In this document: piece by piece, positions 32,935 through 33,372 of the stretch
Layout of the letters: each line of letters starts with the position of its first letter
Numbering within the stretch: position 1 is the stretch's first letter
Origin: Patescibacteria group bacterium
GTDB taxonomy: Bacteria; Patescibacteriota; Doudnabacteria; UBA920
DNA length: 42,007 bases
Assembly: GCA_036266555.1 (NCBI GenBank)
Contig: DATAMW010000043.1
Location: 1-42,007, forward strand
Direction: 5' to 3'
The notes under the pieces: model-generated
What the model was told of the DNA's origin: nothing
The model's database searches: none
Seen by the model: the letters and a program-made list of their open reading frames with translations, nothing else
Position numbers and translations under genes: made by a program

Positions 32935-32963
32935 TTGGCCGGGTTAGAAGCATATGATATAAT
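32935..32963 (+). promoter_or_regulatory. sigma70 promoter with extended -10, 6 nt upstream of the HNH ATG (leaderless)
   Basis: TTGGCC (32935-32940), a 17-nt spacer ending in TGa, TATAAT (32958-32963), then ATG at 32970. Confidence 0.6.
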
Positions 32964-32969
32964 CTTATC

Positions 32970-33281
32970 ATGCCCTACAAGAAACGAGAAGATTTATACG
33001 CTGCTCAGAAAAGGCATAGGCAAAGAATCCGTGCTCAGCTTTTTGACTTCTTGTCTACTAAATCATGCATTGATTGCGGAGAAGCTGATCCTATTTTGCT
33101 TGAGTTTGATCATGCTGATAGAAAAGATAAATTCAAAGACGTGTCAAAATTGTTGTCAGGACATTATTCATGGCTCACAATACAAACAGAAATTGCAAAA
33201 TGCGAAGTTAGATGTGCAAATTGCCACAGAAGAAAAACCTACATCCAATTTGGTTGGTGGGGTAGGAGTAAGCCCCTGTAG
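32970..33281 (+). CDS. small HNH endonuclease
   Basis: CIDCG...EFDHADRKDKF...CANCHRRKT gives CxxC...DH...N...CxxCH, an HNH/His-Me finger with a Zn-ribbon cysteine pair. The last 10 nt, including the TAG stop, lie inside tRNA-Arg(TCT). Confidence 0.8.
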   Translation: MPYKKREDLYAAQKRHRQRIRAQLFDFLSTKSCIDCGEADPILLEFDHADRKDKFKDVSKLLSGHYSWLTIQTEIAKCEVRCANCHRRKTYIQFGWWGRSKPL

Positions 33282-33346
33282 TTAAACGGATATAACTGCG
33301 GACTTCTAAGCCGTTATTCGAGGTTCGATTCCTCGCGGGGGCACCA
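33272..33346 (+). tRNA. tRNA-Arg (anticodon TCT), CCA encoded
   Basis: Hand fold: GCCCCTG-TA-GTTA-AACGGATA-TAAC-T-GCGGA-CTTCTAA-GCCGT-TATT-CGAGG-TTCGATT-CCTCG-CGGGGGC-A-CCA. The anticodon stem has a G-T pair at 27-43 and an A/G mismatch at 31-39. Confidence 0.8.
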
Positions 33347-33372
33347 AAAAAAACGCCATACGGCGTTTTTTT
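33347..33372. terminator. bidirectional terminator between two convergent tRNA-Arg genes
   Basis: A8-CGCC-atac-GGCG-T7. Confidence 0.8.

Follow-up and report, generated by a model that had tools for sequence, protein, structure and literature searches.

Background

The SegB endonuclease of bacteriophage T4 is encoded by a free-standing gene among tRNA genes, recognizes DNA that encodes the T-loop, and drives the inheritance of itself together with the neighboring tRNA genes, with loss of the recipient's markers from the tRNA region (PMC2330249). HNH genes in the tRNA arrays of phages, plasmids and cyanobacteria are regarded as homing endonucleases that shape tRNA repertoires, according to PMC5966550 and the available part of PMC8421152. 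Here we describe a locus on a 42,007-nucleotide (nt) stretch of DNA, called the window below, which is one complete contig (C43, DATAMW010000043.1) of a 740-kb assembly of 46 contigs (GCA_036266555.1) from a Patescibacteria group bacterium; its relatives carry Doudnabacteria or Patescibacteria labels. The locus pairs the gene of a small putative HNH endonuclease with a gene for tRNA-Arg(UCU), from which the HNH open reading frame (ORF) borrows its stop codon. T4 SegB is the closest characterized analogue of this cassette.

Phage T5 encodes the HNH nicking endonucleases F-TflI, F-TflII and F-TflIV between its tRNA genes, and these enzymes are reported to cut the tRNA-gene DNA of related phages; they are not known to be associated with a borrowed stop codon or tRNA replacement. 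In animal mitochondria, excision of tRNAs defines the ends of mRNAs, and excision together with polyadenylation completes the stop codon.

Results

We consider it probable that the locus is a homing-type cassette, made up of a free-standing HNH gene and a tRNA-Arg(UCU) gene with a leaderless promoter and a terminator, and that it replaced the resident tRNA gene. Judged by gene order in relatives, the cassette stands in inverted orientation precisely where this lineage had its resident 77-78-nt tRNA-Arg(UCU). It extends over 32941-33372 (about 430 base pairs (bp)) and encodes the HNH protein and the tRNA only. The features of the locus are as follows.

32970-33281, plus strand: HNH endonuclease gene (predicted), 103 amino acids (aa), the final three codons and the stop being encoded by the tRNA
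33272-33346, plus strand: tRNA-Arg(UCU) with encoded CCA (ARAGORN, tRNA-Arg(tct); Rfam tRNA, 58.8 bits)
33279-33281, plus strand: TAG stop of the HNH ORF, equal to tRNA positions 8-10 (U8-A9-G10)
32917-32929, minus strand: 13-nt remnant GTCGGAGCCACCA, 3' end of the displaced resident tRNA-Arg(UCU)
32935-32963, plus strand: promoter-like TTGGCC-17-TATAAT with TG extension (promoter scan, 10/12)
32935-32940, plus strand: -35-like hexamer TTGGCC (promoter scan), junction filler
32941-32949, plus strand: GGGTTAGAA, cassette-specific motif in the promoter spacer, candidate operator or cassette left end
32955-32963, plus strand: extended -10 element TGATATAAT, whose TATAAT ends 6 nt before the ATG
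33347-33372, no strand assigned: terminator-like palindromic hairpin, common to the convergent tRNA-Arg(GCG)
33387-33463, minus strand: native tRNA-Arg(GCG), a synteny anchor outside the cassette

The HNH ORF and the tRNA share 10 nt, and the upstream neighbor of the HNH gene is a divergent histidine kinase gene (HisK). A sequence-only reading of the window had described the overlap, the tRNA boundary and the leaderless promoter, and each is borne out: ARAGORN starts the tRNA at 33272, upstream of the TAG, with the Rfam score in agreement, and the promoter scan places the end of the -10 element 6 nt before the ATG. ARAGORN finds no other tRNA-Arg(UCU) in the assembly.

The tRNA-Arg(UCU) site in relatives

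Below, G000 is the source genome of the window, other G numbers are compared genomes, and L numbers are extracted loci; the genus was sampled with 26 genomes, and closeness to G000 was ranked by BipA identity. Where it was located in genomes of the genus that lack the HNH gene, tRNA-Arg(UCU) is a near-invariant 78-nt gene (GGCCCCGTAGCTCAGTTGG...) in five genomes, a 77-nt variant in G023 and G024, and a 75-nt form in G004. In these HNH-less relatives it usually follows tRNA-Arg(GCG) directly. The closest relative, G005 (BipA 96%), has the gene order Dus, tRNA-Arg(GCG), native tRNA-Arg(UCU), HisK. G000 has the same flanks, and the inverted cassette stands between tRNA-Arg(GCG) and HisK. The 13-nt remnant adjoins the cassette promoter on the opposite strand and lies 31 nt from the HisK ATG, as compared to 41 nt from the end of the native tRNA to that ATG in G005. 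G007 holds the same 13-mer at the same place, as part of 33 surviving nt that span the T-arm, the acceptor strand and CCA, and the best matches of this 33-mer are the native tRNA-Arg(tct) genes of G023 and G024, from the same genus. With the resident gene reduced to a 13-nt stub, the host depends on the foreign-type tRNA of the cassette.

That this tRNA is foreign in type is seen from its identities: it is only 65-73% identical to the native tRNAs of the genus but 92-96% identical to tRNAs linked to HNH genes in distant lineages, and its identity to tRNAs of G479 and G485 is 99%. Within the genus, the linked tRNA behaves as a flanking marker that travels with the HNH gene, the pattern of co-conversion, with the caveat that elsewhere this tRNA type is also found where there is no HNH gene. 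Among the closest cassettes (80-85% aa identity) three arrangements are found: HisK, cassette, tRNA-Arg(GCG), Dus; RluB, cassette, tRNA-Arg(GCG), Dus; and Dus followed by the cassette in direct orientation. In L073 and L074 (Yanofskybacteria) the cassette is immediately preceded by a 5' half of a resident tRNA that retains a promoter and breaks off near position 31-40. Every remnant breakpoint lies within the anticodon arm or adjacent to it, at tRNA positions of about 31-45.

The same locus carries other traces in genomes of the genus. In G024 (L146, 1385-1545) and G023 (L147) a 5' fragment of tRNA-Arg(UCU), positions 1-35 (GGCTCCGAAGCTCAG...GGGGCTTC), lies 25 nt upstream of a complete native copy, with no HNH gene, and the complete tRNA is bracketed by the inverted repeat AACTCTTGC / GCAAGAGTT; the fragment looks like the footprint of another replacement at this locus. 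In G004 (L100, 1575-1760) a tandem duplication of about 50 nt of leader and the first 18 nt of tRNA-Arg(UCU) precedes the complete 75-nt HNH-less tRNA, which is further evidence of a rearrangement-prone locus in the genus. An integrase island was considered for the window and rejected: the cassette of about 430 bp has no integrase, and the single tRNA 3' stub is inverted with respect to the cassette tRNA. A XerC-like gene (34814-35815) lies beyond Dus, outside the cassette.

The borrowed stop codon

A scan for HNH homologues, using one genome per species, gave at least 575 relatives, of which 80 were analyzed, 58 of them Patescibacteria loci. Each of these 58 has a tRNA-Arg(tct) downstream in the same orientation, no more than 41 nt from the end of the HNH ORF, an arrangement far beyond chance. 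The identical 10-nt overlap, with TAG at positions 8-10, is found in 36 of the 58. In HNH frames out of register with this TAG, the ORF runs on to a later stop within the tRNA, and the overlap is then 14, 24 or 38 nt. Nine cassettes have their own stop 11-41 nt ahead of the tRNA and three end flush with it, so that about one fifth have no overlap; several of the ORFs with their own stop end in a fossil tail of acceptor strand and TAG (e.g. GCCTTTGTAG), the real tRNA lying 26-36 nt beyond.

The overlap also crosses phyla and tRNA species. In Eremiobacterota, Chloroflexota/Limnocylindria and Nitrospirae, homologues with 45-57% identity share the same 10 nt with a tRNA, here tRNA-Pro(tgg), tRNA-Gly(ccc) or tRNA-Arg(tcg), and gp102 of mycobacteriophage PegLeg ends in ...WWRSKDIAV at the TAG of tRNA-Met positions 8-10, again with a 10-nt overlap. 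TAG stands at positions 8-10 in most tRNAs of the window genome (19 of 32), and therefore an ORF without its own stop that abuts a tRNA will usually terminate at U8-A9-G10. The architecture is family-wide, with at least 575 genome matches in addition to phages, and the view that it was an unusual chromosomal one-off does not stand. The A31/G39 mismatch that the sequence-only reading had called unusual in the tRNA is real and is not unusual, being present in 26 of 58 HNH-linked and 8 of 31 HNH-less tRNA-Arg(UCU) genes, including the native type of the genus.

Some loci met in this survey differ in other ways. A Limnocylindria protein (L083, 2263-3300) has two tandem modules, each of zinc finger and HNH, and still ends at TAG 8-10 of tRNA-Gly(ccc). 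In PegLeg (L149, 2318-2640) the hypothetical gene gp107 likewise shares 10 nt with the tRNA that follows it, tRNA-Leu(cag), which means that the tRNA-borrowed stop in this array is not restricted to HNH genes. In L079 and L081 (Nanopelagicales) the geometry is different: an HNH homologue of 44-48% identity shares 44 nt with a tRNA-Arg(acg) encoded on the other strand. Eleven packed tRNA genes lie directly upstream of a 34%-identical HNH homologue in a bin of the same genus (L017, 604-1492, G012:C22); this bin has 2.8 Mb and 7% contamination, so the contig may be from a phage or another organism.

The cassettes share a promoter as well. The pattern aGGGTTAGAAy-N4-TGnTATAATCC-N4-ATG is common to 54 of the 60 cassettes compared for promoters, with one fixed spacing in 41 of the 54, and should yield a leaderless mRNA. 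GGTTAGA is invariant in those 54 and is located inside the spacer, 8 nt from the -10 element, a position for which GGGTTAGAA was rejected as a -35 element. TTGGCC is not conserved at -35 in other cassettes, where a weak TtG..A consensus is found. No GGTTAGA-type motif occurs upstream of HNH-less tRNA-Arg genes, which have plain TGTTATAnT promoters, and distant homologues at other tRNAs have no motif corresponding to GGGTTAGAA. Aligned with the bottom strand of the anticodon loop in the cassette tRNA of the window (GGCTTAGAAG), this motif agrees at 9 of 10 positions; the family consensus matches at 8 of 10, with a chance probability of about 0.06 by rough estimate. At the other end, hairpins of the type AAAAACGCC-N4-GGCGTTTTT follow the tRNA also in G007 and L152.

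The sequence-only reading saw no separate promoter for the tRNA, and we agree. The sole internal promoter-like match in the HNH ORF (33153-33181) is weak (9/12), and across the 58 cassettes there is no conserved internal tRNA promoter, synonymous sites at the 3' end of the ORF being as variable as elsewhere. With the upstream neighbor divergent, the cassette promoter is the sole one visible for the tRNA, and its co-transcription from the HNH promoter appears the simplest reading. No RNA sequencing run was found to contain this organism, and the contigs of such runs had no match beyond the tRNA or short conserved stretches.

Given one transcript, the overlap might be a domesticated fusion of mRNA and tRNA. 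RNase P would then remove the last three codons and the stop, HNH protein would come only from unprocessed transcripts (others leading to stalling and tagging by transfer-messenger RNA (tmRNA)), and the dose of nuclease would be coupled to tRNA maturation. If RNase P cuts first, the loss of these codons and the stop is unavoidable by geometry, and the genome has genes both for RNase P RNA and for tmRNA. The conservation of the 10-nt register across several tRNA species, phyla and a phage, the lack of a conserved internal promoter, and the last three residues, which are variable, predicted to be disordered and hence dispensable, can all be read in favor of such a switch. We nevertheless think it unlikely as an account of the overlap. 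The cassettes with their own stop or a flush end show that overlap is not required, and the frames that miss the TAG and run on into the tRNA look like ORFs without a stop, not like a tuned switch. Moreover, such a fusion is compatible with a selfish cassette and is not an alternative to it. On the evidence of the cassettes that do without it and of the frames that run deeper, the overlap is probably a structural legacy of an ORF abutting a tRNA, with non-stop decay a side effect and not a designed switch.

Distribution, age and codon usage

Close homologues of the HNH gene are distributed patchily. They occur in two of the 26 genus genomes (G000 and G007), always at the tRNA-Arg(UCU) site, while G005 has the native tRNA there. 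Outside the genus they were found in one further genus belonging to its family and one further family belonging to its order, and in three of 401 genomes sampled from the phylum (as the taxonomy used defines it). At least eight HNH-less genomes are nearer to G000 by BipA than is HNH-bearing G007 (85%): G005, G002, G011, G003, G013, G008, G009 and G019, at 87-96%. The gene is equally patchy in a second, Paceibacteria-like group, where only three of the tRNA-Arg(tct) loci listed have a close HNH homologue; one more locus, at tRNA-Arg(tcg), has a homologue with 42% identity. DNA sequencing runs contain the assembled allele only, with no empty-site variant.

Over the 58 cassettes the median nonsynonymous difference is 0.23, and the synonymous median is 0.87, which is saturated. 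Two unsaturated pairs have ratios of nonsynonymous to synonymous change (dN/dS) of 0.06 and 0.09, indicating purifying selection. From these ratios, the saturated synonymous sites and the conserved promoter, the HNH gene is, on comparative grounds, a maintained, functional gene.

Its codon usage is unlike that of its host. The host genome has a GC content of 42%, and AGA and AGG make up 8% and 2% of the Arg codons in its long ORFs, so the earlier supposition that AGA/AGG decoding matters in an AT-rich genome fails on both counts. In the HNH gene AGA and AGG are eight of ten Arg codons, versus 10% in the host (binomial p ~3e-7), and their share is 57% over all 58 cassettes. By this excess over host usage, the HNH gene looks foreign to this genome and appears to lean on the tRNA carried beside it.

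A long-established gene pair, passed on vertically and serving the host (e.g. as a DNA-repair or defense nuclease sharing an operon with the tRNA), non-mobile and lost many times, could also be distributed patchily. Strong purifying selection with saturated synonymous sites does speak of long retention, many Paceibacteria-like cassettes follow the same upstream gene (its product ending in ...VDPS), and the divergence of the HNH protein between G000 and G007 (83% aa identity) is similar to that of flanking genes. We hold this explanation to be quite improbable. G005 has a different native tRNA at this very site, which loss of the cassette could not have brought back; remnants of displaced resident tRNAs flank the cassette; closely related cassettes stand in three arrangements; relatives are found beside other kinds of tRNA and within the tRNA arrays of phages; and the codon usage is foreign to the host. 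A defense role was rejected separately, as no PADLOC defense model matches the protein at E<=0.01.

The HNH protein

The protein has more than 1000 homologues, the best 120 of which are 63-85% identical and mostly 103 aa long. In an alignment of 24 homologues, C33/C36, D47-H48 and C82-A-N84-C85-H86 are invariant, giving two predicted zinc-binding CxxC pairs (C33, C36, C82 and C85), a catalytic-type His motif (D47-H48), an Asn (N84) and a terminal His (H86), the residues that mark the HNH (beta-beta-alpha-metal) endonuclease superfamily. PHROG HNH families 2255, 3106 and 4234 match it with E-values from 2e-23 to 6e-14, and annotated phage HNH or endonuclease VII proteins are 43-55% identical. 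The NCBIfam profile search gave no match, and phmmer against PDB sequences gave nothing useful. The AlphaFold2 model has an overall predicted local distance difference test (pLDDT) score of 86, with a long N-terminal helix, and with short strands followed by helices; residues 101-103 score below 50 and are predicted to be disordered. A chance ORF or decayed pseudogene, functionally unlinked to the tRNA, could be argued from a sub-threshold Pfam HNH score and the lack of a structural match in PDB, and is already refuted by the constant length of the homologues, the invariant catalytic and zinc-binding residues, dN/dS below 0.1, the PHROG matches and the conserved promoter.

Apart from the cassette, ARAGORN reports on contig C39 of the genome (6234-6310) a tRNA-Ile with anticodon UAU (tat), an uncommon way for bacteria to read AUA.

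Discussion

If the locus is a homing-type cassette, the putative nuclease would cut tRNA-Arg(UCU) genes that lack the HNH gene, the breakpoints at positions of about 31-45 pointing to the anticodon arm, and repair would copy in the cassette with its variant tRNA allele, as in intron-less homing. An ORF without a stop would cross the 7-nt acceptor strand and end at the near-universal U8-A9-G10 (TAG). The borrowed stop would tie transcription of the tRNA to that of the HNH gene, RNase P presumably releasing the tRNA, and would let relatives of the gene sit ahead of different tRNA species. Loss of the stop after RNase P cleavage would likely be a side effect that is handled by tmRNA, and need not be the purpose of the overlap.

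Several points weigh against this reading. Its support is comparative throughout, and we infer cleavage, target site and transfer from it. Simple homologous homing cannot account for the inverted orientation in G000, which may result from an illegitimate join on one side, perhaps with help from the palindromic terminator. Synonymous sites are saturated even between the G000 and G007 cassettes (dS ~1.6), so the cassettes appear to be old, and patchiness could owe much to loss. For the protein, the match to Pfam PF01844 (E=0.18) is below that family's cut-off, and Foldseek of the AlphaFold2 model against PDB gave no match below E=5. The tRNA of the cassette type also occurs elsewhere without an HNH gene, in relatives of G443: the tRNA-Arg(UCU) genes of L157-L161 are 95-100% identical to it and have no HNH gene upstream, two of them standing directly after another tRNA. 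One possibility is that these are resistant alleles that persisted once the nuclease was lost; another is that they are native to the clade. The tRNA type is therefore not strictly coupled to the nuclease. Finally, D-stem position 13 was C in 30 of 31 HNH-less versus 3 of 58 HNH-linked tRNAs of a first sample, and this contrast (C13 versus A or T13) is weaker with a third clade added and is confounded by phylogeny; as a possible mark of immunity it is kept as a lead only.

A more ambitious version of the homing-type reading, which we offer tentatively and would not yet expect to hold in full, is that of a self-complementing tRNA gene-drive cassette. A break in the anticodon-arm region would lead to installation of the nuclease gene together with a replacement tRNA, and the host could then not lose the element. 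The ending at U8-A9-G10 would make the element portable from one kind of tRNA to another, and among phages and at least five phyla of bacteria, and GGGTTAGAA could be a target mimic that serves self-repression.

Should the homing-type reading be true, a nuclease of this kind persists in tiny, streamlined genomes by carrying an essential tRNA, which amounts to genetic addiction in a simple form. Patescibacteria would be able to exchange individual tRNA genes across deep lineages, which bears on tRNA-based phylogeny and on inference from codon usage. For annotation, the rule would be that ORFs ending at tRNA positions 8-10 are real. The family would offer small (103 aa), probably site-specific nucleases with natural variants aimed at different tRNA genes, and the link between tRNA processing and mRNA fate in it would be open to direct experiment.

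Comparison with known systems

In the literature covered, which did not include Pope et al. 2014, we found no description of single-tRNA HNH cassettes in bacteria of the Candidate Phyla Radiation. The word "overlap" is absent from PMC5966550, which makes no mention of host tRNA replacement, and the available part of PMC8421152 has nothing on HNH/tRNA overlap or host tRNA replacement. A single-tRNA cassette in ultra-small bacterial chromosomes, the stop borrowed at U8-A9-G10, and replacement of the host tRNA thus appear to go unmentioned in these two sources, as far as their available text goes, and in PMC2330249.

The cassette resembles T4 SegB in having a free-standing endonuclease gene together with tRNA gene(s). 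SegB is a GIY-YIG enzyme of a phage, whereas the window gene encodes a 103-aa HNH protein on a bacterial chromosome, with an activity predicted from its sequence; and unlike the T4 arrangement the cassette carries a single tRNA, not an array, takes its stop from that tRNA, and appears to have replaced a resident essential tRNA gene. The HNH proteins of phage, plasmid and mycobacterial tRNA arrays (e.g. PegLeg gp102; PHROG 2255/3106) are homologous to the window protein at 43-55% identity, and gp102 has the same 10-nt overlap, with the TAG at tRNA positions 8-10, but the array proteins are larger and belong to multi-tRNA arrays on mobile replicons. The T5 F-Tfl enzymes share the placement of an HNH gene beside tRNA genes and differ in being phage enzymes. 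As in the tRNA punctuation of mitochondria, mRNA and tRNA would come from one precursor; here, however, excision of the tRNA would remove the stop codon, where in mitochondria it helps to complete one.

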